Shown: positions 37,501-58,143 of the stretch, one piece after another | Numbering within the stretch: position 1 is the first letter of the stretch | Layout: each line of letters starts with the position of its first letter | Assembly (NCBI GenBank): GCA_046563655.1 | Contig: CM102287.1 | Coordinates: 1,798,001-1,862,000, forward strand | Length of the DNA: 64,000 nucleotides | Reading direction: 5' to 3' | From: Yuukianura sp. NJ FZ-2021 | Lineage: Eukaryota | The notes under the pieces: model-generated | Databases searched by the model: none | The model's input: only the letters and a program-made list of their open reading frames with translations | Told to the model about the DNA's origin: nothing | Translations under genes and position numbers: made by a program

Positions 37501-38965
37501 AATAGCAAATAATGTTGAATGTTCAATTTTGATTTAGAAAATGTTATAATCGAATATTCCTTGAAATTCCATAGACAACTGAGTGATCGTGATTTCTAGT
37601 ATCAAAGTGAGAACTCCTGGTTTGTATCTGGAGTTAGGGCAAGCTCGACATTTCACCGGCACTTCTCGTTTGTGCTCAAAGATGAACCCTGACAACATGT
37701 GGTTCACTGGATGATTTTGTCGTTGATGCAGTACGACAAAGTGGACCGGTATTTGATGCATAAGATAAAGATGGTTATCAACGGTAACAAAGGTAAATTC
37801 CATGTTTTAGTGTTTCAGGCTTTGTTGTATAGTTCACCACTTAGTTAAACCTAAATGACTGTTAGATTTATGCACTTGTTGCATAGTAAAGTTGTGCTAA
37901 AATAAAATTTCGGATTGTTTTTGGACACAAGTTATTTAAGATGTCCTTTATTTGAAGTGAACGATGTTAGTAAAACATACAAAAGTATTTCGTAAAAATT
38001 CCAACCAATAATTGCAAATAATGGTGAATGTTCAATTTTTATTTGGAAAGTGTTATAATCGAATATTCCCTGAAATTCCATAGGCAACTGAGTGATCGTG
38101 ATTCCTAGTATCAAAGTGAGAACTCCTGGTTGGTATCTGGAGTGAGGGCAAGCTCGACATTTCACCGGCAGTTCTCGTTTGTGCTCAAAGATGAACCCTG
38201 ACAACATGTGGTTCACTGGGTGATTTTGTCGTTGATGCAGTACGACAAAGTGGACCGGTATTTGATGCATAACATAAAGATGGTTATCAACGGTAACAAA
38301 GGTAAATTCCATGTTTTAATGTTTCAGGCTTTGTTGTATAGTTCACCACTTAGTTAAACCTAAATGACTGTTAGATTTATGCACTTGTTGCATAGTAAAG
38401 TTGTGCTAAAATAAAATTTCGGATTGTTTTTGGACACAAGTTATTAAGATGTCCTTTATTTGAAGTGAACGATGTTAGTAAAACATACAAAAGTATTTCG
38501 TAAAAATTCCAACCAATAATTGCAAATAATGGTGAATGTTCAATTTTTATTTGGAAAGTGTTATAATCGAATATTCCCTGAAATTCCATAGGCAACTGAG
38601 TGATCATGATTCCTAGTGTCAAAGTGAGAACTCCTGGTTGGTATCTGGAGTGAGGACAAGCTCGACATTTCACAGGCACTTCTCGTTTGTGCTCAAAGAT
38701 GAACCCTGACAACATGTGGTTCACTTTGTGATTTTGTCGTTGATGCAGTACGACAAAGTGGACCGGTATTTGATGCATAACATAAAGATGGTTATCAACG
38801 GTAACAAAGGTAAATTCCATGTTTTAGGGTTTCAGGCTTTGTTGTATAGTTCACCCATTAGTTAAACCTAAATGGCTATTAGATTTATGCACTTGTTGCA
38901 TAGTAGAGTTGTGCTAAAATAAAATTTCGGACTGTTTTTGGACACAAGTTATTTAGATGTCCTTT
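1538..38965. repeat. 508-bp tandem satellite array, about 74 highly similar head-to-tail monomers
   Basis: Minus-strand ORF starts recur every 508 (occasionally 509) bp. Monomers differ mainly at a limited set of recurrent biallelic sites. Confidence 0.98.
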
Positions 38966-39023
38966 AGTAGCATGATTAGTCTATCCAAGAACGTAAAACG
39001 TTTTAGTTTCGTTGTGTGACTCA
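38966..39023 (+). repeat. Left terminal inverted repeat
   Basis: AGTAGCATGATTAGTCTATCCAAGAACGTAAAACGTTTTAGTTTCGTTGTGTGACTCA, containing the palindrome TAAAACGTTTTA. Confidence 0.92.
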
Positions 39024-42000
39024 AGGTAAATTTGCGTTCCGGATACCGCCCAAAGAGCAAGCACCAGAAAATGTTACTTCCTGGAGCAGGTTTCGAAACT
39101 TGATTGCAGGTAGCGCTCCTTCGCGGTAGTTTTTCAGAACGAGATGCTTCACTTTTGCGTTCTTCATGTGCGGCGGAAGCCAGTTGTTGTAGCATACAAG
39201 TTTCCACAACGCTAACCTAAACAAAAGAAACCTTTGGAACAAACTAAATTTTTCAACCGAAGTGTTATGTGACATACCTGTCAACCCGACTTTTCCATTC
39301 CCTTGACACAAGTCGCATCGTGTTGAGCTCATTATTGCTCAAATACGACAACACAAGGGCCATCATCTACACAAAGAATTGGTGGATACAGAAATATCAA
39401 AATCTTGCATATAAGCAGCATGGTTAGTGTGGCCAAGAACATAAAACGTTTTTGGTTCGTCAGTTGAGTCATAGAAATAGTCATTAATAAGTCAATTAAG
39501 AATGCAAGGTCAGTTTCAAAGTATGTTCTTTGAATGACAGGTTATCTTAAAACTGAAAGTCTGTGTTAGGTTTTAGGTTTAGGTTCCGAAGGCTTTTAAG
39601 TGAATCATTGGTCCAAAGTCCGATTTTTTTCATAGACACAAGGACAGTGGTGAGTCATTTTGGAATGTGTGAACATGAGAGTACAAAGTCCAGACGACTC
39701 TTGCAGTGACTCACCGACTTTGCCCGAGTCACACCAAATCTTGACGAATCTCACCGACTCCAGCCGAGTTTCACCGACTTTTGCCGAGTCTCACAGACTC
39801 TTGCCGACTCACGTCGACTTCTGGTCGGAAGCTTAGCTGTAACTAGACGGTTCGGAATACTTCTGAGCTGTGCTTTACCGACACATCTAGGCATCGAACC
39901 GAGTCGAGCTGAGATTTGCGTTAATCTTCATAATTCCTTCCGGTAGAGATAAAAGTGGGGTAGCATGGGAACCAATTCCTCGGATTTATATTTTCACTCA
40001 GACTGTAGTACAATGAAGAGAAAAGTGTGTCAATGCACAATATAATTTTGTGTTTAGTTAACGCACCCACCATCTCATTAGGTTCTTACATTGTATTCCC
40101 AACCATCCCACCACATTACATTAATTCAATGAGAGATATGCGGCGTAAAAGTGTCAAGAGACAGCACGGCTTCAAGTATAAATACGGTGATTTTAAAGAT
40201 CCCCAGAACTCGTTTCGTAATATGTGGGTATGTTTGTGTGGTGTATGGAAAAGAAGAGTGTGTGTTTATTGGGCCGATTCTATGTGAGAAAGAGAATGAA
40301 GTGCTTGAGAGAGCTCTTTGATTTTCGCTGGGGATGTCTGTATCCCGGCTTTCGTGAGAACGAAACCAACGTAGTCCAGGGACTTTTTCAAAAACTGGCA
40401 TTTAGGCTTGGATAGCCGGTAATTTGCCTCTCGCATTCGCTGCAGTATCATGGCCAGAGTTTGTAGGTGCTCTCGTTCCGTGCGACCGCTACAAACTGAA
40501 TCGTCCATAAAGGAACCGGACATGGGTATAGATTTCAAGAGTGTATCCATGAATTCTTGAAAGATCGCTGGGGATGAGGCAATGCCTTGGGGCAAGACAT
40601 TGTATCTATACAGTCCACGGTGTGTGTTTATGACGAGGCAGGACTTGCATGAGTCCTCCAATTCCACTTGGTGGAATGCATCTGGGCCATCAAGCCGTGA
40701 GAATGTTTCACCTCCTGAGACAAGTGAGAACAGTTCCTCCACGCGCTGTAAAGGATATTGGGTAACGTTCAGCTGGGCATTGACCGTGTGCTTAAAATCT
40801 CCGGTAATGCGTACACGTCCATTTGCTTTGGGAACAACAACAACTGGAGAGGCCCAATCGGAATGTTCGATTCGCGAAATGACGCCTGTCTTCTCCATTG
40901 TATCTAATTCCGCGTCTACCTTGCTGCGCAGAGCGAAGGGTATGGGACGGGCTTTGTAAAATTTTGGGACAGCATTGTCTTTCAGAATGACCTTTGCTTT
41001 AAATCCACGGATAGTCCCGTTAACCGGACCAAAAACGTCTGCGTACTCGTCTAGTAGAGCGTTAAGTGTCCATTGCTTGGGCAAATTGGGGGATACATTG
41101 TGACAGCGGGACTGGTCGACAAGTGCTATCTCCATTCCAAAGAGCCGTGTAAGATCTCTGCCAAAGAGACTCTTACCTTTTGAAACTGCAAATGTGTAAT
41201 TGCGTGAAATACCCTGATAGTTCACCTTGACCTCTAGTTCCCCGAGATGTTTGAACTTTTCGTCTGTGAAAGTACGGAAAACTTGACTCGACTTCCGTAG
41301 GGGTGGGGATCCAAGGGAGTTCCGCCAGAAGTTCTCGCTGAGGAGACTTGTTTTGCATCCACTGTCAAGTTCCATGACGTGGTTTACCCCGTTGATCTTG
41401 ACCAAGATCGTGTACTCGGCGTCGAGGGAGGGACCTTGCCGTACAGTATTGACATTCGAGACGTAGTTCTCCGAAGTGTCATGACCTACCGTGTGGGTTG
41501 TGTGGGGTTTCCTGCCATTCCGGCACATTTTCTTGAAGTGGCCACGTTTGCCACATGCGAAGCACTCTGCGTCCTTGTGTGGACAGTCGCGAGCGGTACT
41601 GTGGGCCTTAGAGCCGCAGTTAGGACATTGACTATTTCTGGAGGGCTGGGCTCCAGAAGGTCGGGATTGGGCGCTACCCCTCTGTGGGCCACCCCGGCCA
41701 CGCCCCCTACCACGATGTGGTGTCTGAAATGGGCGACGTGCCGTTGACGCAAAATTTACCTCTGAGGTGTTTGGATTGCGTATAACCATTGCACTGGTGT
41801 CCGCAGCTTCGTGCGACACCGCGACCTTGAGAACCTCCTCCAAGGTCACCTCATCCTCTTTAGTGAAGACCGCCTTCTGGGCACGCTCGCTTGTTAAGCC
41901 AAAGATAAATTGGTCTCTTAAGTGGTTTGGGAGGTTGGTACCAAACTTGCATGTAATCGCCATTTTTCGCAGGGCTGCGAGAAATGCGGATACGGATTCG

Positions 42001-45000
42001 CCTGGGCGCTGTTTCCGTAATGAGAATTTGTATCTCTCTGCGAGGGCTTTAGGGGCTGGTTTAAAGTGATTCTGCAGGGTTGTGATCAAGGTCTTAAGCT
42101 CCGCCTTGAGTGGTGAAATTGGTGATAGCAGATTCACTAGCAAGGAATATGTGGATATTCCGAGGGACGAAAGGAAAATGCCGGCGCATTTCTTTTGCAC
42201 GTCCGCGTCAGTGGATTCTGAGCTAAGTCCATTCGCTACGAGGAATGACTTATAGACATCCACCCAATCTTCGAAATCATCGCTTGATGAATCGAAGGGT
42301 TTTAGGGTTCCAACAATAGCAGTGGCCATGTTATTGTCCTGGAATAATTGGGCAAGTATTGCTGGAAAAGAGGGATGAGTTTTGGGCTTTTACTCTCGTC
42401 GCCAAAATGTGTGGTGTATGGAAAAGAAGAGTGTGTGTTTATTGGGCCGATTCTATGTGAGAAAGAGAATGAAGTGCTTGAGAGAGCTCGAGCTTTTATA
42501 GCTAAGACTTACGTGCTAAGAAAGGTGGGAGGAAAGTTGCATCAGCAATGATGCCTAAACTGGAAATAACTAGTTTCTGTAATTACGTAGTTTCTTACGT
42601 ACATTACAGTTTGTAATTTGTGTAATGTTTGTAAAATAACCTTCAAAAGTAATTAATACCAACAGAGATTCAAAATGACAGCCAGGATGCAAATATTTAC
42701 AACTGAAGGCAGACAACATGAATGATTTTTTCCAATACCAAGATTGACCAAGAGTATAATTAACTTTTCTATATATAAAAAAATCAAATATTTTCTAATT
42801 CCGCTTCTCTGTAAAAGTGGAGTATAGTATTCCACACCACTACCACCACCAGCATCACCACCACCACCACCACCACCACCACCACCACCGCCACCACCAT
42901 AATTCGTTATAAACTTAGCGCTAACGAAATTTTCTTTAGTTGCAAGTTTGTTTCCGCAGAGTGGGAACGTGCTGTATTTGGGATAATACTACCCATCCTA
43001 GCTCTACAATAATTGTAATATACGCTATGAACGTCTACTGCGGAGTTTGTGGCATTCCTTTTTCTCGAGCGGAAGGAGCTATAGCTGCAGGAGCCGGGGA
43101 GGTAGCACCAAAGGCCGGTTCGTCTGTGACAGAAGCCGGGGCGGGAGTCGCCAAGTCCGGAGCGGGAGTACCCGGCGCGGTAGGAGCGGGAGTACACGGC
43201 GCGGTAGGAGCGGGAGTACCCGGCGCGGTGGGAGCGGGAGTACCCGGCGCGGTAGGAGCGGGAGTGACCAAGGCCGAAGCGTATCGAGCGGGAGTGACCA
43301 AGGCCGAAGCGGGGGGAGCGGTAGCGGATGTTGCAGAACCGGATCCTCCCAGGCGCCGAAGAGGCCGACCGCGCAAATGCGTTGGGATTTCGCCAGATGT
43401 GTTTGCCACGCAACGCACTTTGCGACCAAGGATCAAACGCTTTTAAAAAAATCCTATTTGTTTCAAAAAGTTTTTTTTTTTGACTGAATAAACTGAATAA
43501 AACTTTTTTTCGATGGTGAAAAATTGTGAAATCAGGAACGGATTTTTGATTGTATATACAAAATTACATCAATTCAAAAAAGTTTTTCTGTTTGCAACTG
43601 AATAAATCCTTCTACTAATTTCTGTGGGTTGCCTACAGTCGTGTGCTGAATAATTTCGCACAAACAGAACCACCACCTCGCACCTACCGCCACCACCACC
43701 ACTACCACTGTGACGGTGGTGTATTTCCCCACCGTCAGAGGAGTAGGGGGGACCCGCGCAGGGCAGCAGAAGAGGAGGAGAGCAGCAGAGCCACGAGGCA
43801 AAGAGGACCACACCGCACAGCACAGTTTAGCTTTTAGTCTCATTTTAGTCTTTAGATCTTTATTCTGCGAATAAAGATCAGTCTCTTTCTTGGCTCACAC
43901 GCGGATGGTCGTCTCTTCCAGATCTTTTCTCGGGTTGACCGGGGGTCAACTCTACACCACCACCACGACGACGACGACCACCCACCACGTTCCGAAAACC
44001 ATTTGGTGGGAGTGTTGGGCTAAGAACGTGTCATGAGGGAACTATACGGAGGGGGATTGTAATAAGATATTACGAGGGAATTGCAGGGAAGATTAAGAAC
44101 ATATTACGAGTGTGTAGTGCAGCGGCCAGCAGGTTTGTCATGATAAATCTGAAAACTCAAGTTCGGTTTCTAGGTTTGTTTCCCGCTTAGTTCTTTTTAA
44201 CAGTATCTAACCAAATCTATTTTTGAATTGAAAGCTTAAATCATGGAAGGCTTGAAATGTCAATGTTCTTGTATGATGTACACACGCGCCCTGAGGAACT
44301 GAAGGCAGACGATGCGTAGGTTAAGTACCTAACGTAACCTGGCCCGTTGTGACTAATCGTTTATATTACGAATTAAATTCGTAAATCCTCGTGTGCATAT
44401 AACCTGCGAATCTGGATGGGAAGTTATCATTCAGAAAGACATGGAGGGATTTATGAACAATTTGGGGGTACATATGAAAGTTTGGGGAGACTAAAAATAT
44501 ATTCCGAGGGTACAGTGGGGTGACTATAAAAGTAGTTACCTACCAGTTGTAGGTTAGTGGACTAGGCGCACGGACCTGGGAAAATACATAATAAGGTGTA
44601 AGTCCGTCACAGTTCAGTCCCGTTGGTATAAGTATGCATCAACCGCTCTTTGCCGGAACTGACGTAGCAGACCTTCGTGCGTACCTACGAGAGGAAGCCT
44701 TAAGTCCTGGAGGCCCACGTGGAGTCGACTGTTACGCCCGTGCTCTTTTTGCCATCGATCGACCAGGCTCAGTTATCGAATCAAATTTAAATGAATTCAA
44801 ACAATGTACCCTCGACGCAGTTTTCTACCACTGGCACCTCGACGTTGAAGAGTTCTGTAACTCCAGCACTTGGTGTCACTCACTCTTCGTATCAAGAAGT
44901 CGAGAATTCTCCGGAATTTGCAGAGGTATGTTTGTTGAACGATTCTTTACTCTGCTCGGAAGATTTCGGCGCGGCGCCATCGCTGACTACGTCGACGCCG

Positions 45001-48000
45001 AGTTGCGCAATACGGACGCATCCAGTCTCTACAAAGGGATTGTGTACTTCACAACTTATCAACGAAACTATTTTGCGCGCTGGTGGGAACTGCGACCAAT
45101 TCGTGCCACCTGTAGTTCATACCGATTCTACTTGTGCCCAAATTCGTCGAATTATCGATCTGCCGATTCCGTCATGGTTCGCTGCGATGATGTTTGATAA
45201 CCCATTCTTGGAGATAAGAAGTTGAAGCTGCTTCATCGGGACTACATCACTTAGTGTCGATGCTAATCTTGGCTGTATGAAAAGGGTGTCTAGTTTGAAC
45301 CTCGCAACATTGCATCCGTGTTGAGTGAAGCAGGTCAATCCTAAGCACAGTCAATTCGTAAGCATGAACAATTCGTAAGCAGAAAATTCGCAAGCATGGC
45401 AAATTCGTAAGCACAGTCAGTTCGTAAGCATTCTCCAATCGTAAGCAAATTTTTTCGAATGCTTGTGTTTTCGTTTCGTAGGTTATGTGTTTAAGCTTTA
45501 AAATTGATGCTCTGTTAGGTTAGGCTAGGTTAGGTTTTTTAGATTATATTTTCTTCAAAATTTTGCAATTGAAATAGGTTTCACGAGGCTTACAAACGCA
45601 ATGCTTACGAATTCACCATGCTTACGAATTTACCGTGCTTTAAAATTTTAGCTTACAAAGTTGAGCTTACGAACTGACTGTTTACGAATTTGAGCTTACA
45701 AATTGACCTGGAACCGTGTTGAGAAGCTGACATGGTATCATGCAGTTGGATGTGAGTTGAACATTGATGTAGATACTCCAACATGCTGTTTGTGGGGGCG
45801 TGTGGGCTGCCAAGGAAGAAATTGTATGGTGATGTTTAAAACTATTATTTTTCAGAAATCACTTTCGTAAAATAGCTCCGTTTTGCGTTTTGTGCAATAT
45901 TAAAAAAAATTGATTTTTTTGTAAATGATTTTGATTTGTAAATGATTTGTATGTTTTGTACATGATTTGTATATTTTGTAAATGATTTAAGATGAATCTT
46001 CATCAATTTCACAACATCCAAAAACATTGCTGTCCATTCAATTTTTCTCAATTCAAACATATTAAAAAAAGTTTGCTTTCATTTGAATTGATACTGATTT
46101 GCTTTCATTTGAAAGTTTGTACGTTCGAAGGCAAAAAAAAAACGAAATTTACTTTTCAATGTACAAGGAGGATCAAATGTTAATAAACATTTGCGTAAAT
46201 TTGAAGAACTAGAAACACGACAACATACTGTCCATAGAATTCTTGAAAAAAACAACAAGGTAGGGCAATGCTCAAAGGGGTTGAGCATAGGTCTTCTGGA
46301 GGGAGTTGACAATTGATGCGACTTAAACCGGCCTGCCTCAAAACTGTAGAAGAACTGAGAAGCCGTTTTCATGTAACTGATGCACCAAAACATCGCTTAA
46401 ACTTTTCAGTGCGGGTGGTGTGAGGTACTACTTCGTGCATGAGTTGCACCAGAATTGGGTTGGCAATTCTACCATTTAATTGCAACAAAATTATGTTTCA
46501 GTTTTGAGCCCCAAAATATTTGCACTAAATTGATGTTCTTAATTTTTGAGCAAGATGCACATAATGTATTATCGGTGTTGATAAGGCAATGTACTCTTAG
46601 CGAAAAAATTTTGCAAAGGCAAATTTTAACCCTGCCAAGCACTGTTTCCATATTATGAGTTTAAGCCAAATTTTCTACCCTCTAGTTAAGTATTAAATTA
46701 ACAACGTAACTAAACATAGTGTCAGAAAATGACAGGGTCAAAACTTCGTTGTTTAAATATATTTTGAGTGTAATCGAAACCAAAACGTTTTCGGGAAACG
46801 ACTACACTGCGTCTGCGTAACGTGGCCGCTCACTTCGACGCTGTTAATTCTAGAATTTTAGTGCAATGTAGACCTACTGCAAACTCTTGAGCCAAACATA
46901 ACCCCCCGACTGCGATAGGGCTTATGTTTCAGTGGAAAGGGTCCTAAAAAGTGTGACGGACGGACAGACAGACAGACAAAGTCGTATCAATAGTCTTCTT
47001 CAGCACGTCGCAGACGTGCGTCTCCAGAAGACTAAAATTACAAACCAAAACAAAAGATGTTTATTGTACAAGGAAAAATTTTCCGGTTACTAGAACCAGG
47101 GAGCAAAACAACACCCCTTTCATTACTTTTTGAAAGAGATTCTGAAATTCTTGTGGATGAGGAGGAAGAGGAGGATGACGAATGTAATACATTTGGTACA
47201 ACACCAACCTGATCTCCAAAACAACATGACCTAAGCTCTAGACCAGTTCGAACCTTGTCAAAAAAAAAACAAATTTGGGAACCATAAATGAGATTTTTTT
47301 TTCACAAAAAAAAAAGCTGACGTTTGCAGGGACGGGCGCGCGCGCGGTCCCAGCTTTGCCATGGTGGGTTTTAAACGCAACATGCGACGTGGGGTGTTAA
47401 TCCCTACTACCCACGTGGGTTTAAACCCTGCGTGCAACTTGGGTTTAAAACCCTGCTTGCAATTTTTGAAAATGCACGCAGGGTCTAAAACCCAAGTTGC
47501 ACGCAGGGTTTAAACCCACGTGGACACTACGAACTTGGTTTTAACCCTGCATGCAAATTGAGTTTAAACCCTGCGTGCAACTTGGGTTTAAACCCTGCGT
47601 GCAACGTGGGTTTAAACCCTGCGTGCAACTTGGGTTTAAACCCTGCGTGCAACTTGGGTTTAAACCCTGCGTGCAACTTGGGTTTTAGCCCTGCGTGCAA
47701 CTTGGGTTTAAACCCTGCCTCCAATTAATCCAAATTTGACAAACATAAATTATAGTTACAACCAGTTCAGCAGAAAAAAAAGTTAACTGTTACAGGATCT
47801 GATATTTTGAAAAAACAAGTGCAGGGAACGGATGCAAAGAAAAAGTTTGCAAACTCTATGAAATGCAGTAGTATTATATTAGTTGATAAATGTAAAATTA
47901 ACCATTTAGGTTAGGTTAGGTAATGAAATGAAATGTAAAAATGAAAATTAGAAAAGGTTCTAAAAAAACATCAGCTTGCCAAATTTGGGAGGCATTTTTT

Positions 48001-48966
48001 TTTCAAAGTTCACATCTATATTTTCAGAATGTTGAGAAACCCATTTGAATTAGGCATAGACTGCACAAATGACCTTAGACTTTGGAATATAGTCATTCAG
48101 AGTTTTTTGCTGCAACACGTATACTTCCAATCGTTCTTAAACAAAATATGCTCAGTTGACTATTCGCAGAAGCTCTACTGCTTAAATTTTTTCCTAAATT
48201 TAAAAAGGACGCCTTGTTATTTAATCAGACATTCGAAAAGACCAAATTATAAATTCAATACAAAAATTTATTCACAAGATTAAGTTCGGCTCCAAACTCA
48301 AAGTATGACACACTTTCAATGTTCAATGCGTCGGACGGGACACTTATGACATATCGTCAAGAATGTTCAATAACGCAGATTTGGTTAAACAAATTGCATT
48401 TCGTTTTCCTGCTTTTACAATTGCTATCAAGTATTCCAACTGATTTGAGTTTAATTTTGACTCTTGATCTTGATCCGACGAGTCCGATTGCATCTCATCG
48501 TCATCTTCTTCGTCAGCCTCCGAATAGCTCTCTGAGCCTTCATTTTCCTCATTGTCCTCGCCATCGTCATCTACGGCGCCCACAATTGTTCGCAAACCGT
48601 CCAAAGTGAGTCGATGAGCCCCGACGTCGGCATTGTGTAGAGCATGTAAGATCAGTGATATGCTGGATTTGCTCATTCTAACCTAAAGGTTGCTAACCTA
48701 ACCTTTGGGGTAATGTGAGAATTACCCGAAATTTCCTAAGTTCCACGTATATTAACAACATTTAACCATCGTACCTACTCTGGACGAAGTAGTTACATCA
48801 GCACAATCAAAACACACGTATACGGGTACATTTCTCACAGTGCCCCAGTTTCAGGAATATGCGAAAACAGGGTTTCATTCTTATGTTGTCCCTCACAAGC
48901 AAAATTTAAACACCCAACCCAACCCCTTACCTCAGTTGGAAGGCTTTCAAACATGGAGTCTTGCAT
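39021..48966 (-). CDS. Spliced F-box protein gene, 106 aa (exons 48966-48931, 39366-39278, 39216-39021); intron 1 expanded to about 9.6 kb by nested TEs
   Basis: Manual splicing at GT-AG sites gives MQDSMFESLPTE|MMALVLSYLSNNELNTMRLVSREWKSRVD|RLALWKLVCY..., which fits the F-box pattern LP-E...L-SYL...L...VSR-W...LW. Intron 2 is 61 nt. The join of exon 1 to exon 2 is phase 0 but is inferred across 9.6 kb. The stop codon falls in the left TIR. Confidence 0.7.
39414..39471 (+). repeat. Third, diverged TIR copy; probable end of a nested, inverted relative of the element
   Basis: AGCAGCATGGTTAGTGTGGCCAAGAACATAAAACGTTTTTGGTTCGTCAGTTGAGTCA matches the reverse-complemented right TIR at 50/58 and the left TIR at 45/58. 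Confidence 0.8.
39695..39825. repeat. Degenerate repeat of about 10-bp period with a CCGA(C/G)T core
   Basis: CCGACT, CCGAGT and GACTC cores recur at roughly 10-bp spacing. Confidence 0.6.
40266..42329 (-). CDS. Gag-protease-reverse transcriptase polyprotein, truncated before RNase H/integrase
   Basis: Zinc knuckles CPNCGSKAH...C and CFACGKRGHFKKMC, protease LDSG, and RT motifs WASPVVVVPK, LPQG and FMDD. Retroviral sequence ends at ...SPAKIK (40317), after which the ORF reads into the LTR remnant. Confidence 0.92.
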   Translation of the reverse strand: MATAIVGTLKPFDSSSDDFEDWVDVYKSFLVANGLSSESTDADVQKKCAGIFLSSLGISTYSLLVNLLSPISPLKAELKTLITTLQNHFKPAPKALAERYKFSLRKQRPGESVSAFLAALRKMAITCKFGTNLPNHLRDQFIFGLTSERAQKAVFTKEDEVTLEEVLKVAVSHEAADTSAMVIRNPNTSEVNFASTARRPFQTPHRGRGRGRGGPQRGSAQSRPSGAQPSRNSQCPNCGSKAHSTARDCPHKDAECFACGKRGHFKKMCRNGRKPHTTHTVGHDTSENYVSNVNTVRQGPSLDAEYTILVKINGVNHVMELDSGCKTSLLSENFWRNSLGSPPLRKSSQVFRTFTDEKFKHLGELEVKVNYQGISRNYTFAVSKGKSLFGRDLTRLFGMEIALVDQSRCHNVSPNLPKQWTLNALLDEYADVFGPVNGTIRGFKAKVILKDNAVPKFYKARPIPFALRSKVDAELDTMEKTGVISRIEHSDWASPVVVVPKANGRVRITGDFKHTVNAQLNVTQYPLQRVEELFSLVSGGETFSRLDGPDAFHQVELEDSCKSCLVINTHRGLYRYNVLPQGIASSPAIFQEFMDTLLKSIPMSGSFMDDSVCSGRTEREHLQTLAMILQRMREANYRLSKPKCQFLKKSLDYVGFVLTKAGIQTSPAKIKELSQALHSLSHIESAQ
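42395..42404 (-). promoter_or_regulatory. Primer-binding site, probably tRNA-Ser(GCU)
   Basis: TGGCGACGAG lies 5 nt inside the 5' LTR and is complementary to a tRNA 3' end ...CTCGTCGCCA. Confidence 0.7.
42832..42899. repeat. Imperfect (CAC)n microsatellite
   Basis: Run of CCACCACCA...; shorter CAC runs also occur near 43670-43710 and 43955-43990. Confidence 0.9.
43027..43446 (+). pseudogene. Internally deleted paralog of the RING/AT-hook gene (139 aa: N-terminal CxxC, Gly-Ala-Val repeats, AT-hook tail)
   Basis: Starts MNVYCGVC (compare MIICSIC). Ends RRRRGRPRKCVGISPDVFATQRTLRPRIKRF versus KRRRGRPRKCVGISPVVLSTHRSLRPKIRRF in 49483-51124. Lacks the rest of the RING and the coiled coil. The frame is open, so it may be expressed. 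Confidence 0.7.
44634..45197 (+). CDS. Intronless hypothetical protein, 187 aa
   Basis: ATG-initiated ORF with ordinary amino-acid complexity, GC-richer than its flanks, TATAAAA about 110 bp upstream. No motif recognised. Confidence 0.4.
   Translation: MHQPLFAGTDVADLRAYLREEALSPGGPRGVDCYARALFAIDRPGSVIESNLNEFKQCTLDAVFYHWHLDVEEFCNSSTWCHSLFVSRSREFSGICRGMFVERFFTLLGRFRRGAIADYVDAELRNTDASSLYKGIVYFTTYQRNYFARWWELRPIRATCSSYRFYLCPNSSNYRSADSVMVRCDDV
45326..45713. mobile_element. Foldback/MULE-like MITE, about 390 bp
   Basis: Flanking direct repeat CCGTGTTGAG (45316-45325, 45714-45723; true TSD 8-10 bp). CAGGTCAAT / ATTGACCTG near the termini. Arrays of TTCGTAAGC on the left and inverted GCTTACGAA on the right. 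Confidence 0.75.
46254..47035 (-). mobile_element. HINE (non-autonomous Helentron derivative, DINE-1-like)
   Basis: On the minus strand it starts TAGTCTTCTGGAGACGC...AGAAGACTA plus a (GTCY)n microsatellite, and it aligns by eye for about 420 bp with 56848-57265. The 3' end has subTIR CTCCAGAAGAC (about 46301-46291) then hairpin ATGCTCAA-N5-TTGAGCAT (46268-46288). Inserted in a T-rich target. Confidence 0.85.
47411..47720. repeat. 24-bp minisatellite with palindromic core GGGTTTAAACCC, including a 113-bp inverted repeat (47411-47523)
   Basis: Unit CTTGGGTTTAAACCCTGCGTGCAA is tandem at about 47530-47720. Forward and inverted copies face each other at 47411-47523. Confidence 0.9.
48344..48676 (-). 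CDS. Hypothetical acidic protein or exon, 110 aa
   Basis: ORF with a D/E-rich core, preceded by a possible acceptor ...TTAG. No domain recognised. Confidence 0.35.
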   Translation of the reverse strand: MSKSSISLILHALHNADVGAHRLTLDGLRTIVGAVDDDGEDNEENEGSESYSEADEEDDDEMQSDSSDQDQESKLNSNQLEYLIAIVKAGKRNAICLTKSALLNILDDMS

Positions 48967-49057
48967 TGCCCCAACTTCTTCTTCTTCTTTTTTTTTGATT
49001 TGTGTTTGATATTTCTCTCGCAAACGATGTGTTGCGAACGAGAGGAAGTTCAGGCAA

Positions 49058-49254
49058 TTATATACCCCAGACCAAAAATGTATGAAACGTTCCATTCAGG
49101 TTGGGGCGTCCAAGGTCAACCGAACTGTCACCACACGAGAGTCCAAAGTCAACACCGATGAGCTCACCAAGGACAATGGGGCTGAGTCCAGGGTTTGCTT
49201 TGAAGTGAACTTCCTACCCTGCCATCTACTATATGGCATGAGGGTCCAAGGTCA
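49058..49254 (-). promoter_or_regulatory. Putative promoter of the F-box gene: TATA box plus a cluster of nuclear-receptor extended half-sites
   Basis: TATATAA (minus strand) at 49064-49058, about 90 nt upstream of the ATG. CCAAGGTCA at 49110 and 49246, CCAAGGACA at 49167, CCAAAGTCA at 49143. Confidence 0.5.
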
Positions 49255-49482
49255 TGTGCCCCCAAATCTAACTTCTCAACGTAACTGTTGCAAATCTAAA
49301 CTTGTTCAATTGGTATACTAAAACATCAAATTACTGTGAAAAGAATCAGAATTGCGTATTTTAATAAGAAATTCGATTTGACAAAATCAAAGAAAGTGTT
49401 GTGCAATGATAGTTGAATCATATTTACTTCTGAACTTTTTTTTTAATCAATTTCCAAATAACTTTGTGCAAAGAAAAACAAT

Positions 49483-51124
49483 TTAGAAGCGTCTGATCTT
49501 GGGTCTCAAGGAGCGATGCGTGGATAACACAACTGGTGAAATACCGACGCATTTGCGTGGCCGGCCTCTTCGTCGCTTGTGTAGATCGGTTCCAGAAGCA
49601 CCCGCTCCGGTTCCCGAAGCACCCGCTCCGGTTCCCGAAGCACCCGCTCCGGTTCCCGAAGCACCCGCTCCGGTTCCCGAAGCACCCGCTCCGGTTCCCG
49701 AAGCACCCGCTCCGGTTCCTGAAGCACCCGCTCCGGCTCTTGAAGCACACCTATCAGCTCCTTCCGCAGCGGCACTTGTCACACCCACGGCTGCTGCCGC
49801 ACTCACTCCGTCTCCCACTCCTGGCGTCACCGAAGCTGACGGTCCGTTTGCTGCTGCTGGTTGAAACTCCCTCTTGATAGTCATGCTGGACAGCTCCGAC
49901 CTCAAGCGAGCAAGTTCATCAACGGCTTCCTGCCTACTGCGGTCAGCTGCTGAAGCCCCAGCTTCGGCAAAATATGCAGAATCCCGTGCATTGCCTAGTT
50001 GTTCTTGTAAGTCGAATATTCGTTGTCCGTACGACGAACAAGATTCGTCCATCTGACGTTGCAAAGTGTCCATTCTCGCAGCTGATGAGTACTGCTCTTG
50101 AGCCAAACGAATCTTCTCAGCATGAACCTGAGCTTCGGACTCAAGTAGCCTTGCACTCAACTGCTCAACTCGGTTCTCGGATGCTGAAAGTCGCTGGTTC
50201 ATGCCGCTCATCACTGCAGTGTTGCTTGCCAAAGTTTTTTCCCTGAAGAAAACAACATACACAAACAATCATGAATGGAAATCAAATTGCAGCAAATTCT
50301 ACTTTTTTTTTTGTGAAACTTACCACGACTGCGTTTGGGATTTCAGTTCATTTTGTTTTTTTTCCAGCTCCAACTGGAGCTGAATGATGACCCTACTCTT
50401 GTGGGCAGAACCACATTCTACTTCAGTAGCTCGACGTGTTCTAAAAATTTAGCAAACCAACAAAATTTATTCTTTGTTTGCAAACGATTCCAAACATGTA
50501 AGATCAAAAAAAATAATTCACACTTACAAAACATTTTGCATAGGCAAAGATGCAACCCTCCCTTGAATATCATTGAGCACGGTCCGAATCTCACCGAGAA
50601 AAGCACTGAAACAAAAGCATACATTTAACTATTTAAAAAAATATTTCATGATAATAATAATAATTTTACAAACCTGGTGTTCTGGTTTTCGCCAGAAACA
50701 TAAGCCCCGTCGTGAGCGGAGAAGTAGATTCTCCGCCCATCAACTCGTTCGCCCATAGTTTTGACGACAGCATAACACACTGGACATGGTGTCCTGCAAA
50801 AAAAACAAGCAGATTAAAACCTCACTTAAAAATATTTTTGAGTTATAAACATTAACTTCGAATTAAAAAAAAAACTTACTCAACTTCGTTTTGATGCCCA
50901 AGGCATCCTGGGTTTTTCGACGCCGCCCAGTTGATCATGCACAACCTAAAAAAAAAGACACATCAAACGTTTGCTGCATTTTGGAAAAACACAAACTACA
51001 AAAAAAAACTTTTTTTTCCTTACCAGTGCAACACGTGGTTGCACTCGGTGACCACGACCACCGACTTCGGATCTGAAGGCGGGTGTTCCCCAAGCACTTC
51101 CCGACAGATTGAACAGATAATCAT
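49483..51124 (-). CDS. Six-exon RING-H2 / coiled-coil / Gly-Ala repeat / AT-hook protein, 413 aa; putative E3 ubiquitin ligase with TRAIP-like architecture
   Basis: Exons 51124-51024, 50945-50880, 50793-50674, 50605-50528, 50440-50324 and 50242-49483. All five introns are GT-AG and phase 2, and the join has no stop. Translation: MIICSIC...TECNHVLHWLCMINW...TPCPVC...RIYF, then a heptad-like L/E/Q-rich region, about 7 x GAGASGT, then RRRGRPRK. Confidence 0.88.
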
Positions 51125-51510
51125 TTCCAAATCGACTTTTTTGCCACTTTAAACTGTTGACTAACTGCACACATATCAACCTTGAGTCGTTCGTATTTAG
51201 ATATAACGATCAACGAGGACTTAAAACAAAACCACATCAGATGAATTTCAGATTTGTGCAAGCAACGCGCATTTTACACGGGTCAAAGGTCGGAATGAAC
51301 GCGCACCAAGAAAGTGACACAATGACACATACGACATATTTCCGTGCACATTCCTACAAACGTTTCAAGGACATATTACAAAAATAACTACAGCAACTAT
51401 CACTGACTCATTTTTAAAAAACACTCGCTTTCGAAAGAGAGGAAGATTCAAGTTGCACTCGAACGACAAACGTTTGACCTTAACCTTGCATTCTTCATAA
51501 CTTCTTCCTG

Positions 51511-51568
51511 TGACTCACCTAACGAAACTAAAACGTTTTACGTTCTTGGACACACTAATCATGCTACT
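51511..51568 (-). repeat. Right terminal inverted repeat
   Basis: Reverse complement is AGTAGCATGATTAGTGTGTCCAAGAACGTAAAACGTTTTAGTTTCGTTAGGTGAGTCA. Confidence 0.92.
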
Positions 51569-52588
51569 TCCTTTATTTGAAGTGAACGATGTTAGTAAAA
51601 CATACAAAAGTATTTCGTAAAAATTCCAAGCAATAATTGCAAATAATGGTGAATGTTCAATTTTTATTTGGAAAGTGTTATAATCGAATATTCCCTGAAA
51701 TTCCATAGGCAACTGAGTGATCGTGATTCCTAGTATCAAAGTGAGAATTCCTGGTTGGTATCTGGAGTTAGGGCAAGCTCGACATTTCACCGGCACTTCT
51801 CGTTTGTGCTCAAAGATGAACCCTGACAACATGTGGTTCACTGGATGATTTTGTCGTTGATGCAGTACGACAAAGTGGACCGGTATTTGATGCATAAGAT
51901 AAAGATGGTTATCAACGGTAACAAAGGTAAATTCCATGTTTTAGTGTTTCAGGCTTTGTTGTATAGTTCACTTAGTTAAACCTAAATGACTGTTAGATTT
52001 ATGCACTTGTTGCATAGTAAAGTTGTGCTAAAATAAAATTTCGGATTGTTTTTGGACACAAGTTATTAAGATGTCCTTTATTTGAAGTGAACGATGTTAG
52101 TAAAACATACAAAAGTATTTCGTAAAAATTCCAACCAATAATTGCAAATAATGTTGAATGTTCAATTTTTATTTGGAAAGTGTTATAATCGAATATTCCC
52201 TGAAATTCCATAGGCAACTGAGTGATCGTGATTCCTAGTATCAAAGTGAGAACTCCTGGTTGGTATCTGGAGTGAGGGCAAGCTCGACATTTCACCGGCA
52301 CTTCTCGTTTGTGCTCAAAGATGAACCCTGACAACATGTGGTTCACTGGGTGATTTTGTCGTTGATGCAGTACGACAAAGTGGACCGGTATTTGATGCAT
52401 AAGATAAAGATGGTTATCAACGGTAACAAAGGTAAATTCCATGTTTTAGTGTTTCAGGCTTTGTTGTATAGTACACCCATTAGTTAAACCTAAATGGCTA
52501 TTAGATTTATGCACTTGTTGCATAGTAGAGTTGTGCTAAAATAGAATTTCGCACTGTTTTTGGACACAAGTTATTAAGATGTCCTTTA
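51569..52588. repeat. 508-bp satellite, about 2 monomers
   Basis: Resumes in phase after TSD TCCTTT; one monomer has a 3-bp deletion near 51970. Confidence 0.95.
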
Positions 52589-52637
52589 ATTCAATTCAAT
52601 TCTTTAATCTCGGGAAGCGTCCTGCATGCAGGTTGTT

Positions 52638-53221
52638 CCCAACTAGAAACGAAACTTAAATTCATGTTAATTTAACGTTGGAAGTGTGAAAAATCAGTGA
52701 TGTTGTAAATTATAACCGGACTCTGTATTTACAACATAATTTCAACTATTAATTTAGAAGTTAAAATAACGTTGGGGTGATGTGTTTTTATAACAAGTTT
52801 ACAACGCATCATTCTACAACTGTTACCAATTTTGCGAAAATAAGCTAAATTTAACGTCGTTTTAACTTGTGGTGCTGTAGTAGGAGGCGCAACGTTATTT
52901 TCACCTCTTTTTCACATCGCTCCCGCTCTTCTCCGTAACCGGCATGACTGCTAGAAAAGGATAGTGAGACTCCAACAATGTGAGTTTGTGGAAGTGGTGC
53001 AGAGCATAGGAGTGAGAGGAAGAGAAGGGAAGAGAAGGTGGGAGTGCAAAGCTCCACACGGGAGTTATTTTTTTTCACTCTCGCAACAAAAATGCAACGT
53101 TATGTTTTTCCACACTCTCAACATTTTTTTCGCGTGGAAAGCGCGGCCACAAATCACTTTAGCGCAACGTTACGTGGTAACAGAAATAAAACGTTGTTTT
53201 AACTTTCGATTTCTAGTTGGG
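52638..53221. mobile_element. 584-bp MITE with CCC...GGG termini and 2-bp TT duplication (CMC/EnSpm-like), nested in the LINE 3' UTR
   Basis: CCCAACTAGAAACGAAACTTAAA at the left versus reverse-complemented right end CCCAACTAGAAATCGAAAGTTAAA. TT at 52636-52637 and 53222-53223. Confidence 0.75.
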
Positions 53222-53374
53222 TTACGCTTCTTGCAGAAAATTGATACAGAGTTTAACAAATATTAATGTTGAGTTAAGGTAACTTGCTTAGTATTATCGT
53301 TTAAAAGTTAGGATAAAAACAAAGATAAAAATGAATAGTTTGAAAATGAAAATGAAAACAGCAGTGATTCGTCC

Positions 53375-55739
53375 CTAAACATAACCTGCAACAGCATCAA
53401 TGCAAGACAGATTGCAAACATTATCGTCATTAATAGTAAAATCATTAAAATGTGATGTTACATGGGTATTCAGGAAATGGTCAAAAAGCTTAAACCTTTT
53501 AACAGTTTTGAGGTCTAATTCGGGAGGTAATTCACTTGTGATACGGGCAACCGTTTGAATGAGTGACTTTTTATGAAAATTCGGGCAAATTGGGAAGTAA
53601 TGGCGGCGTCGAGTTGACTTCGGTTGAAGTGTGGCATTTTCAATTGAGTCGATCATGCTGTCAAAGAATGAGTTTTTTGATCTAAGAATGGTGAGGTAGC
53701 AACTTAGCGTTTCATATGCTGTCATAGCGTTAAGAGGCAACCAGCCGAGGTTGGTAATTTGTGATGTGATGCTATCCCACTTTGAAAGATTCAAAACAAA
53801 TCTAGCACATCTTCTGTAAAGGTTATTCACTTTCTTTAGTTTGGATTTTTGGGACTGACTGAAGATGACAAGCATGTATTTGAGAATTGGGATTACGTAT
53901 GATGTCACCAAGATTTTCCGGTTGTGCTCGTCAAGGAAATGTTGAAGAGGTAGTAAGTTCCAAAGCGCTGCATTGCCTCTTTTCACAGTTGCGTCGATAT
54001 GTGTGACCCATGTCAAGGACTGGTCAAGGAAAAGGCCTAGCGACTTGATATGTGGTAAGTTTTTGATTGTTGAGTTTCCAACTTTGATCTCGGTTACTCC
54101 AATGCTTTTCAAAATACCCGGTTTCCCAATTATGATGAATTGCGTTTTTTCGGGGTTGATTTTGAGACGGTTGTGTGTCATCCACTCTACAATTGAAGTG
54201 ATGTCATCTTCCAGTTTCTTTAAGAGATAGATTTGGTGGTCCAGAAATGATGAGTGTAGTGTCATCAGCATAGAGAATCGTTATTGAATGTCGTACTGCA
54301 AGTGGCAGATCATTTATCATGATGTTGAACAGGAGAGGTCCAAGAACAGATCCCTGTGGAACAGACAAAATTGTTGGTTTAATTTTTTAAAATTGTAACC
54401 CTAATTTGACTTGTTGGTGACGATGGCCAAGATATGATTCAAACCAGTCTGAATCAATATTGTACCACCGTAGCTTTTGGAGAAGAATGTCTTTGTCGAC
54501 GGTGTCAAACGCCTTCTTGAGATCTAAGGAAGCAATTAGGCTGATGTGGTCTTTGTGCATGTTCTTGTACAATTCCTCAGTTACTCCAATTTGAGCCATG
54601 GTGGTGGAGTGATGTTTCCTAAACCCAAATTGTGCCGAGTATAGAAGTTTATTTTTCTCAAGATGTTTACTGAGTTGTTCGTGAGCAGCTTTTTCTAGAA
54701 TTTTGCTGATGATTGGTTGTGTTGAAATTGGGCGCATGTCAGATGGATGTTCTGGATTCTTGATTTTTGGAATGGGTACAACAATTGAATGCTGAAAAAT
54801 CGGTGGGAATATTTTTGTTGAAAAGCTCAAGTTCACAATTTTTGTCAACTGTTCGTAGATTACTGGGGCGCAGATGCAGTGAGAGAACATCCAGTGTGAA
54901 AAACCCAGAGAGTCAAGTGTTGTTGACTGCTTCTTGGTAATGGACTTCCAAATACGTTTTATATCACTTGTGTAAATGGGCCTTAATATCATCTGGTCAA
55001 CTGTTGTTGATAGTTTAGTAGGTTTAGTGGGCCTAACTGTTGATACTTCAGATGGGGTTGTGATGGAGGTAAAATAGTCACTGACATCATCTGCAGTCAT
55101 TTCCTGTTGAAAGGATGAAACTGAGGCAGGCCGTAATCGTTGTAGTAGTTTGTGGACCCCATGCTTCTGAATTTCCATGTTAAGATGGTTTTTCCTGTCA
55201 AGAAATACGCTTTTTTTGATTTGTTTGTTTAAATCAAATACTTGACACTTGATTTCAGGAACGGACAAAAATGGTAGTAGTGTTTGTCGTTCACTCAGTA
55301 AGATCTTCGTGTGTGGAGACATATAGAATCGTTTTGGGCTTTGAATCACTGAAATTCGTTTCACAGGAATGACTTTGTCAAATGCACATTTAACTTTAGA
55401 TGTAAAGTCCTGAAGGAGGTCACTTACACTTACATTTCCATCAGAAAATTCAGTTTGGACAATGTTTTGACCTAACTGTTCAAAGTCACATAATTTGTAG
55501 TCTTTGGTTAGAAAAGTCAAACGTGGACGTTTGGGTTTGGACAAATTGATGTTGGCGTAGACGAGGCAGTGATCCGAAATTCCAGGGTCAATGACACCAC
55601 TCTCACAGATTATTGAGTTTGAACTCGTGTATAGTAAATCAAGTAAACTGTTTCCTCTGGTTGGTTCAGTAATCAGCTGACTAAAACCAGACTCTATTCC
55701 GACATTCTCAACAACACTTTTTAGCGAGGAGGGTACATA
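53375..55739 (-). pseudogene. LINE ORF2 (partial AP endonuclease plus reverse transcriptase), disrupted
   Basis: Motifs QLITEPTRGNSLLDL...[31 protein letters not shown] and YADD. In-frame stop at 54387-54389 and a frameshift near 54220. Confidence 0.9.
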
Positions 55740-56848
55740 CCTTTATTTGAAGTGAACGATGTTAGTAAAACATACAAAAGTATTTCTTGAAAATTCCAAC
55801 CAATAATTGCAAATAATGGTGAATGTTCAATTTTTATTTGGAAAGTGTTATAATCGAATATTCCCTGAAATTCCATAGGCAACTGAGTGATCGTGATTCC
55901 TAGTATCAAAGTGAGAACTCCTGGTTGGTATCTGGAGTGAGGGCAAGCTCGACATTTCACCGGCACTTCTCGTTTGTGCTCAAAGATGAACCCTGACAAC
56001 ATGTGGTTCACTGGATGATTTTGTCGTTGATGCAGTACGACAAAGTGGACCGGTATTTGATGCATAAGATAAAGATGGTTATCAACGGTAACAAAGGTAA
56101 ATTCCATGTTTTAGTGTTTCAGGCTTTGTTGTATAGTTCACCACTTAGTTAAACCTAAATGACTGTTAGATTTATGCACTTGTTGCATAGTAAAGTTTTT
56201 CTAAAATAAAATTTCGGGTTGTTTTTGGACAATAGTTATTAAGATGTCCTTTATTTGAAGTGAACGATGTTAGTAAAACATACAAAAGTATTTCTTGAAA
56301 ATTCCAACCAATAATTGCAAATAATGGTGAATGTTCAATTTTGATTTGGAAAGTGTTATAATCGAATATTCCCTGAAATTCCATAGGCAACTGAGTGATC
56401 GTGATTACTAGTATCAATGTGAGAACTCCTGGTTGGTATCTGGAGTGAGGGCAAGCTCGACATTTCACCGGCACTTCTCGTTTGTGCTCAAGGATGAACC
56501 CTGACAACATGTGGTTCACTGGATGATTTTGTCGTTGATGCAGTACGACAAAGTGGACCGGTATTTGATGCATAAGATAAAGATGGTTATCAACGGTGAC
56601 AAAGGTAAATTCCATGTTTTAGTGTTTCAGGCTTTGTTGTATAGTTCACCACTTAGTTAAACCTAAATGACTGTTAGATTTATGCACTTGTTGCATAGTA
56701 AAGTTGTGCTAAAATAAAATTTCGGATTGTTTTTGGACACAAGTTATTAAGATGTCCTTTATTTGAAGTGAACGATGTTAGTAAAACATACAAAAGTATT
56801 TCTTGAAAATTCCAACCAATAATTGCAAATAATGGTGAATGTTCAATT
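55740..56848. repeat. 508-bp satellite, about 2.2 monomers
   Basis: Resumes in phase after CCTTTA and ends at GTTCAATT, where the Helentron begins. Confidence 0.95.
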
Positions 56849-58143
56849 AGTCGTCTGGAGACGCATGTCTACGACATGCTGAAGAAGACTATTGATACGA
56901 CTTTGTCTGTCCGTCCGTCCGTCCGTCCGTAACGTTTTTTAGTACCCTTTGCATTGAAACATTACCTCCATTATTGACGGGGTGTCCTGTATCGCTCAAG
57001 TGTTTTCTCTACCTCTACATTGCACTCAAACTGCTTTATTAACAATGCAGAATTGTGCGGCTACTTTACGTACCCGCAGTTTCGTGGCATAGCGAAGACA
57101 TTTTGGTTTCGTTTACGCTCACAATGTATTTAAACAACGAATTTTTGATCTGGTCATTTTCTGGCAAGATGTTTAGTTACGTTGTTAAATTAAGCCTTTT
57201 TAGCGGGTTGAAATTCCGGCTTAAATGTTTAATATGTGAATAGTGCATAGCATGGGTCAAAATTGCATTTTACTATTTTTCATAATTTTCATAATTTCGA
57301 TTTTCACAATCGATATTCGACCCCTCGCTCCAGCGTTTATTACATACATAATGTGGGATACATAAACGTTGAATTGTGCATTTGCATAAACCAATTTTAG
57401 TCTTCTGGAGACGCATTTATAATTTCGATTTTAACAATGATATTCGACTCTATAGCTTATGACTTAATTTAATACATTGTGAATTAACATGAAACGATGA
57501 GTATTTTAAAGAAACTATATTTGACTCTTCCTAATTTTGTGCATTTTGCACACTTATTGCACACGAATGTAAAATTATGCAGTTACTTTGACGCTGGGTA
57601 ATGGACGTTGTTATTTCAAAAATTGAGCATACTTGAGAACAAACGTGCGTCAAAATAATTTTATGAGAGTAAAAACTGTCATAGCTTAGTTTTAACATTT
57701 TGATGCAAACGGTTTTTAAACATCATTTTGAGGCATCGTGATTAACACTGAGTTTACTATTATATTGTCATGGGGATGCACAATGCAGTCATAGGTTGTT
57801 GAGTAAGTTGCTTATTGCTATCAATCATGTATAAGAAATTTTTATCATTTTGAATTACTAATTTTAAACAAACAATATTTGACTACTTAACCTCGACCTT
57901 CAATTTTGTTCGAATACAGTCTACTCTTAAAGATACCTTTTCGTCTTCCTCATTCTTCTTCGACTCTCATTCAAGTGTTTAGTTTATAGTTTAATTCTCT
58001 ATATTCAGTTCTATTTTTGAGTGCATAATTTTAATTTTAGATAAACGTTTATCTATTATCTTCGGGTAAGAATGTTTTTTAATCTTAATGTTGTACTCAA
58101 AGTATGCTCATTTACATTTCACTTCATTATTTCAGATAGAATT

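Follow-up and report, generated by a model that had tools for sequence, protein, structure and literature searches.

Maverick/Polinton elements are described as carrying long terminal inverted repeats (TIRs) together with target site duplications (TSDs) of 6 bp (PMC8969392). In the account of vertebrate Mavericks consulted here, the ends read (AGT)2//(ACT)2 or (AG)3//(CT)3 beside a 6-bp TSD, the TIRs measure 46-1447 bp, the smallest intact elements reach 12,723 bp, and the iteration at the ends would permit "jumping back" during protein-primed replication (PMC8097293). In nematodes, intron-bearing and relatively GC-rich cargo genes adjoin a TIR, and Maverick cargo has been linked to horizontal gene transfer and selfish elements (bioRxiv 10.1101/2022.07.12.499685). 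Derivatives that lack polB have only recently been noted in insects, and in Pieris mannii such polintons, with cargo of the long interspersed nuclear element or long terminal repeat type (LINE/LTR), seem to have kept their activity (bioRxiv 10.1101/2025.02.07.637071). For Tlr1 elements, the term non-autonomous polintons has been used at times (PMC5499653). Here we analyze a stretch of 64,000 nucleotides from Yuukianura sp. NJ FZ-2021 (GenBank assembly GCA_046563655.1, contig CM102287.1, positions 1,798,001 to 1,862,000 of the forward strand), which we call the window and which holds an insertion of 12,603 bp at 38966-51568. Our reading of this insertion, to which we give a probability of roughly 60%, is that of a composite non-autonomous TIR transposon with Maverick/Polinton-type ends that carries one captured RING gene and one F-box fragment. 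We describe the locus as a composite, non-autonomous TIR element that captures genes, rather than as a demonstrated module of two genes.

The insertion is a single clean event within a satellite monomer, bounded by a perfect 6-bp TSD:

38960-38965, unstranded: left copy of the TSD, TCCTTT, read in the sequence and single in intact monomers
51569-51574, unstranded: right copy of the TSD, TCCTTT, read in the sequence and supported by the empty-site comparison

Joined with only one copy of TCCTTT, the flanks gave a rebuilt empty site that had 81 blast matches in the window; of these, 75 spanned the junction end to end, at 91-97.5% identity and with 0-2 gaps, and because of this we regard the 12,603 bp as one clean insertion. 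The TCCTTT site is present once per uninterrupted monomer in these 75 neighboring monomers. The satellite itself is a 508-bp tandem repeat that occupies 1760-38965 and resumes from 51569 to about 56600, with its matches spaced by 508 bp in 55 and by 509 bp in 15 of 74 cases; its GC content is 36%, compared to 43% for the element. Both the clean 6-bp TSD and the insertion into satellite DNA that a preliminary description of this locus had proposed are therefore borne out, since the site is whole in 75 monomers and the flanks rejoin to 508-bp monomer sequence. The array comprises more than 70 monomers, 91-97.5% alike over the tested 200-nt site, and every monomer contains a 148-codon minus-strand open frame with no Pfam match. 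An open reading frame (ORF) with an RVT_1 match of the non-LTR type (E=1.5e-14; 54387-55742, minus strand) breaks into the array.

The element carries three copies of its terminal sequence, one of which is internal:

38966-39023, plus strand: outer left TIR (L), begins AGTAGC; inverted-repeat alignment, 53/58 to R
39414-39520, plus strand: internal TIR', begins AGCAGC, about 107 nt like R; alignments, 50/58 to R and 45/58 to L
51511-51568, minus strand: right TIR (R), ends GCTACT; alignment to L and TIR'

L and R form an outer inverted repeat of 58 nt that is 53/58 complementary (91%), so that the element opens with AGTAGC and closes with GCTACT, in agreement with the 58-bp AGT...ACT TIRs reported before. 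Three occurrences of the TIR core were counted in the window, where 100 shuffles gave an expectation of 0.00; the third copy, overlooked in the preliminary description, has its first 58 nt at 39414-39471 and the orientation of a left end. Over the first 58 nt, identity is 53/58 between L and R, 50/58 between TIR' and R, and 45/58 between L and TIR'. L resembles the right end for only about 58-62 nt; the likeness of TIR' passes position 58 and continues for about 107 nt with one 11-nt indel, reaching back to about 51460 in the right subterminal region. Because TIR' and R share these 107 nt, we read the stretch between them as the probable older core of the element. A fourth TIR that would close the interior as a complete nested element was not found by Smith-Waterman alignment (best other score 30, maximum of 27 in 20 shuffles), and the only other extended inverted likeness between the left and right halves of the element is a 134-nt piece of an AT-hook exon.

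Palindromes of the form TGASTCA lie at 39017, 39465, 39651, 39707, 51404 and 51511, which are six of the seven in the window, and all six are terminal or subterminal, lying no more than about 750 bp from the left end or 165 bp from the right end. The total for the window is not above chance (7 against 10.8 expected), and it is the placement that is striking, since every TIR copy, the internal one included, has a palindrome at its inner edge. Subterminal repeated motifs of this kind are typical of cut-and-paste elements, and the element could belong to such a superfamily with 6-bp TSDs, namely Dada, IS3EU/GingerRoot, a hAT group with that TSD length or one that is undescribed; the outer TIR is short at 58 nt, and the tie to Mavericks consists of TSD length and the first few bases only. 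Elements of the hAT group have YARNG ends and usually an 8-bp TSD, which AGTAGC does not fit. The TSD length would suit both Dada, with 6-7 bp (PMC8869645), and IS3EU/GingerRoot, with 6 bp (PMC10045372). However, the cited account of IS3EU/GingerRoot gives TA..TA termini, against AG..CT here, which rules against that assignment (PMC10045372), and Dada is described as targeting multicopy small RNA genes (PMC8869645), whereas the target here is the 508-bp satellite, unlike a Dada target because no Rfam family was found in 38000-58000. The AGT-AGC and AGC-AGC iteration of the ends, moreover, is what protein-primed jumping back would need (PMC8097293). We consider another superfamily possible on these grounds and clearly the less probable assignment.

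Compared to the published Maverick pattern, the element has the 6-bp TSD and TIRs within the reported range of 46-1447 bp (58 nt for L/R, about 107 nt for TIR'/R), and its trinucleotide iteration, which recurs in the AGCAGC of the internal copy, agrees with the published motif in part (PMC8969392; PMC8097293). On the strength of these letters, the ends appear to fit the Maverick pattern best, and the label is reasonable but unproven. A protein-guided scan of metagenome contigs returned 471 pattern stretches, one of which passed tblastn and was rejected as a low-complexity match of 30 residues.

None of the Maverick core genes (protein-primed polymerase B, rve-type integrase, ATPase, protease and capsid) was found when 99 of the 112 six-frame ORFs of at least 50 aa were scanned with Pfam, the other 13 being 12 other-frame ORFs over a reverse transcriptase (RT) ORF and one satellite ORF. 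The only real Pfam match among the 99 is RVT_1, from a nested retroelement, which makes the element a non-autonomous derivative at most. Together with the TIRs, the TSD and the intron-bearing RING gene inside, these results support the earlier view of a non-autonomous cargo transposon with no mobility gene of its own.

We compared the element with contigs of at least 80% likeness from four public DNA runs, three from one sample (organism A, perhaps that of the assembly) and one from a second organism (B); the depth of these contigs does not give copy number. In all four runs, contigs pass from 40237 to 42633 through 10 other letters, and because they do so without the retroelement fragment, other copies or alleles lack it. 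A repeat of about 900 bp is likewise skipped in two of the runs (X1 and X2), where contigs pass from 46250 to 47151 or 47161. One contig runs at about 98% across the junction of the F-box exon and TIR' (39345-39866), and the RING gene is covered at about 85-95% (49793-50611), also in organism B. Related copies or alleles of the element exist, and the retroelement fragment and the 900-bp repeat are later additions.

These contigs also bear on the idea that a full-length autonomous Maverick inserted here and then lost its contents where it stood, through deletions and nested insertions, in which case the present form would never have moved. The length of 12,603 bp is close to the 12,723 bp of the smallest intact vertebrate Mavericks (PMC8097293), and the interior is indeed decayed and invaded. 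However, no remnant of a core gene was seen in the scanned ORFs, and the RING gene would have stayed intact while the supposed core wholly vanished. The interior junctions (39345-39866; 40237 to 42633) are repeated in contigs of 95-98% from the same sample and from organism B, which suggests that the gutted form exists more than once, with allelic haplotypes possible. We therefore find gutting in place very improbable.

The cargo just inside the right end is an intact-looking, host-style gene predicted to encode an E3 ligase:

49483-51124, minus strand: RING gene of 413 codons, with exons 51124-51024, 50945-50880, 50793-50674, 50605-50528, 50440-50324 and 50242-49483, from splicing and reading frame

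Its frame starts with the ATG at 51124 and stays open for 413 codons through six exons, and its five introns, of 78, 86, 68, 87 and 81 nt, are all GT-AG. The RING motif played no part in the choice of splice sites, which followed GT-AG and the open frame. The consensus for RING-H2 (C3H2C3) domains is C-x2-C-x(9-39)-C-x-H-x2-H-x2-C-x(4-48)-C-x2-C, and the spliced frame conforms to this spacing with C4, C7, C28, H30, H33, C36, C59 and C62. The predicted protein continues with a long helical/coiled-coil region, eight GAGASGT repeats that derive from a 21-bp coding tandem repeat, and the AT hook RRRGRPRK. The six-exon RING-H2/coiled-coil/AT-hook gene of the preliminary description is thereby upheld as a reading of the frame.

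Pfam searches used single exons of the RING and F-box sequences rather than spliced proteins, and by HMMER the two domains named in the preliminary description fare differently: the F-box exon lies above its cutoff yet is partial, and RING exon 1 lies below. This exon, which holds half of the domain, matched seven families at E=0.0012 to 0.04, all below cutoff and six of them RING-type zinc fingers, among them zf-RING_UBOX (E=0.0012), zf-rbx1 (E=0.018) and zf-RING_2 (E=0.026). The AT hook, a very short motif, reached E=0.97 and 10 bits against Pfam AT_hook (cutoff 17.4). In a phmmer search among 1.84 billion representatives, no true relative of the 165-aa coiled-coil part was found. Four matches of this part, at E up to 0.001, were multi-stretch alignments of repetitive coiled coil and were rejected as homologues. 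Exon 6 returned nothing from a 5.8-billion word index, where the low-complexity repeat probably swamped candidates, and exons 1 and 3 returned 0 matches and 2 irrelevant matches, respectively, from PDB.

Every intron of the RING gene is in phase 2, and the internal exons measure 66, 120, 78 and 117 nt; because these lengths are divisible by 3, any internal exon could be skipped in frame. Alignment of the introns as one introner family gave only generic AT-rich likeness. TRAIP-like RING E3 ligases offer a possible lead for the protein, since in them, too, an N-terminal RING-H2 is followed first by a short hydrophobic motif and then by a long coiled coil; TRAIP is not known to have the AT hook or the GAGASGT repeat.

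The F-box sequence lies at the other end of the element, between L and TIR', and a second frame had been proposed to belong to it:

39024-39413, minus strand: F-box fragment of 390 bp, consisting of a 47-nt intron tail, an 89-nt exon, a 61-nt intron and a second exon, from Pfam and frame reading
48344-48676, minus strand: acidic ORF of 110 codons with AATAAA downstream, from ORF reading, with Pfam matches of low complexity below cutoff

The 89-nt exon (39366-39278, minus strand) matches Pfam F-box at E=1.6e-5 and 25.1 bits (cutoff 20.5). The match spans profile positions 10-36 of 43 only, leaving the domain incomplete, and the exon is directly preceded by an in-frame stop. The 47 nt upstream of the exon resemble the tail of an intron and are followed by the outer terminus of TIR'. 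Downstream, a 61-nt GT-AG intron leads to a second exon from 39216 that adds 64 residues, giving a 94-codon reading whose TGA, at 39023-39021, lies inside L. For these 64 residues, no Pfam family was found at E up to 10, so that no substrate-binding domain was seen, and none of 5 candidate relatives among longer proteins was significant. Because the profile is partial, TIR' adjoins upstream and the frame stops within L, we conclude that the F-box sequence is not a gene; it is a 390-bp genomic fragment, cut 5' and 3' and bounded on both sides by TIR sequence.

According to the preliminary description, the element was a core of about 3 kb with two working genes, a RING E3 gene and an F-box gene whose intron 1 had been filled by nested material, which together would form a two-gene ubiquitin cassette acting as a selfish proteolysis or toxin-antidote module. 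Some of the observations are compatible with such a module: the RING and F-box frames are both on the minus strand, the F-box exon exceeds the Pfam cutoff, later insertions do occur in the interior, and the acidic ORF lies upstream on the same strand, where a possible phase-0 donor near 48425 would put L-x-x-x before the exon. However, the acidic ORF proposed as F-box exon 1 (48676-48347) is intronless, ends its 110 codons with an in-frame TAA about 75 nt before an AATAAA, and offers only a weak phase-0 donor, ATT|GTAAAA. The 89-nt exon carries the only F-box signal, the first 9 positions of the profile are absent from it, and a stop stands right before it. The supposed intron 1 would measure about 9 kb, compared to 61-87 nt for the six introns measured, and would contain, 47 nt upstream of the exon, a TIR copy for which it holds no matching right end; downstream of the exon, the frame terminates in the outer TIR after 64 further residues that match no domain. 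With an F-box piece truncated at both ends between TIR copies, the F-box gene model fails, and the filled intron, the 3-kb core and the cassette that depended on it lose their support. We judge two working genes to be very unlikely.

For the composite element, we infer the superfamily, the mobilization in trans and the order of events as follows, and any role of the RING protein would be an inference too. An autonomous relative elsewhere in the genome would supply a retroviral-type integrase and probably a protein-primed polymerase, and these proteins would recognize the AGT/AGC-iterated termini and insert the element through a staggered 6-bp cut. The older core would run from TIR' (39414) to the right end (51568), with the RING gene just inside the latter. 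A left extension of 448 bp, made of the 58-nt outer TIR and the 390-bp F-box piece, would have been added later. Most likely, a related element would have received the core within its F-box cargo, after which the outer left end of this host element was used together with the right end of the core. On this account, the F-box piece would be a by-product of the left extension rather than a working partner of the RING gene, and the remaining interior would be later transposable element debris.

Several points weigh against this reading. The outer left and right TIRs are only 91% alike, their 58 nt are at the short end of the published 46-1447 bp, and AGTAGC//GCTACT agrees with (AGT)2//(ACT)2 at 5 of 6 positions, with a motif that was described for vertebrates and may not be that of the host (PMC8097293). 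No autonomous Maverick bearing this TIR was found, the TIR pattern having 0 matches in viral contigs and 0 in metagenome contigs. Thus, of the Maverick-type termini claimed in the preliminary description, the TSD and the TIR length stand, the motif agrees in part, and no core gene to go with them was found in the scanned ORFs. The composite scenario is one of several routes to two left ends, and some of the "other copies" in the contigs could partly be a second haplotype, given their similar depths. Finally, the coiled coil of the RING protein is without a true relative among the representatives searched.

Elsewhere the interior is a patchwork, with three further features:

40238-42632, minus strand: retroelement fragment with gag, protease and RT, from RVT_1, direct repeats and contigs lacking it
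42940-43446, plus strand: inverted copy of the RING last exon, from an ORF and nucleotide alignments
46251-47150, unstranded: high-copy repeat of about 900 bp, from contig skips, depth and a second copy in the window

The retroelement fragment contains an open frame of 707 codons (40266-42389) with gag, zinc-knuckle, protease and RT parts and an RVT_1 match at E=3.3e-23, bracketed by 82-bp direct repeats that are 100% identical (40235-40316 and 42408-42489). The whole 2395-bp block stands in place of the 10 nt found in other copies. It is not a clean, TSD-flanked insertion and has more the look of filler DNA or of a retroelement that was rearranged.

The inverted partial copy of the RING last exon has diverged and contains a 24-bp coding repeat of its own, an AT hook and a similar C-terminal tail. 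Its alignment gives 76.9% over 134 nt (43314-43447 against 49615-49482), or 80% over 112 nt in another alignment. The ORF at 43027-43446 on the plus strand starts with M-x3-C-x2-C, which is reminiscent of the start of the RING gene, and may be an internally deleted RING paralogue, with nucleotide likeness only over the last 134 nt.

The 900-bp nested repeat is present at very high copy, with a summed contig depth of 41,000-122,000 compared to about 100-500 in neighboring bins, and it occurs again at 56847-57270 with 77.7% identity over 430 nt (57270-56847). At 47411-47724, a 24-bp tandem repeat of 7.8 copies with strong dyad symmetry lies beside a near-perfect hairpin of 55 nt; the Pfam "Toxin_23" match to its translation was put down to chance. 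A 200-aa ORF at 44595-45194 was rejected as a gene (Atlas recognition 1936, scores below 0.9).

To the right of the satellite array, a Helitron occupies 58045-63107 on the plus strand, its consecutive frames giving DUF6570, Helitron_like_N and PIF1 helicase, with a 63-bp coding tandem repeat of 6.5 copies near its start (58285-58691). Its closest relatives at the protein level share only 40-50% identity with it and belong to fungi, arthropods and metagenome sources, and the nearest cluster in the Atlas is one found most often in Rotifera. The ORF that follows it (63145-63999) has no Pfam match at 1e-5.

A bolder version of the Maverick assignment would make the element a fully gutted Maverick that rides along with autonomous Mavericks in the manner of a satellite and owes its replication, its integration and perhaps its packaging to them in trans; its intact and chromatin-directed RING E3 might counter host silencing as viral RING ligases do or act selfishly. 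We regard this as a long shot; if it were true, a ubiquitin ligase of host origin could be carried by the element from genome to genome. As seen, the locus amounts to one low-copy insertion within satellite DNA, and the two-gene module is absent from it. If the Maverick assignment of the composite element is true, it would be a core-less derivative that is still transposing with a complete, intron-bearing, host-type gene. On the composite reading, it also illustrates how host DNA can be added to an element through a second, related end. In the papers returned by our literature searches, on non-autonomous or Maverick-derived elements and on RING or ubiquitin-ligase cargo, we saw no description of an element like this one.

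Among known systems, elements of the Pack-MULE type resemble it in that they are bounded by TIRs and a TSD, lack a transposase and hold captured gene pieces with introns, to which the 390-bp F-box fragment may be compared. On the other hand, MULE TSDs measure 9-11 bp, and the element here has a 6-bp TSD, AG ends and one captured gene that is apparently complete. The polB-less polintons of Pieris mannii are similarly flanked by TIRs, have lost replication genes and contain a retroelement, and they seem to have amplified nonetheless; as far as the cited account describes them, they differ in still encoding other polinton proteins, whereas the present element encodes none and carries a host-type gene in addition (bioRxiv 10.1101/2025.02.07.637071). 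The nematode Mavericks of Widen et al. share with it the TIR boundaries and an intron-bearing, GC-richer cargo near one TIR (bioRxiv 10.1101/2022.07.12.499685), and its 6-bp TSD fits Mavericks, as its AG-type ends do in part. It differs in that no core gene was found among its scanned ORFs and in that its cargo is a RING E3 gene rather than a WASP protease or a KRMA kinase.

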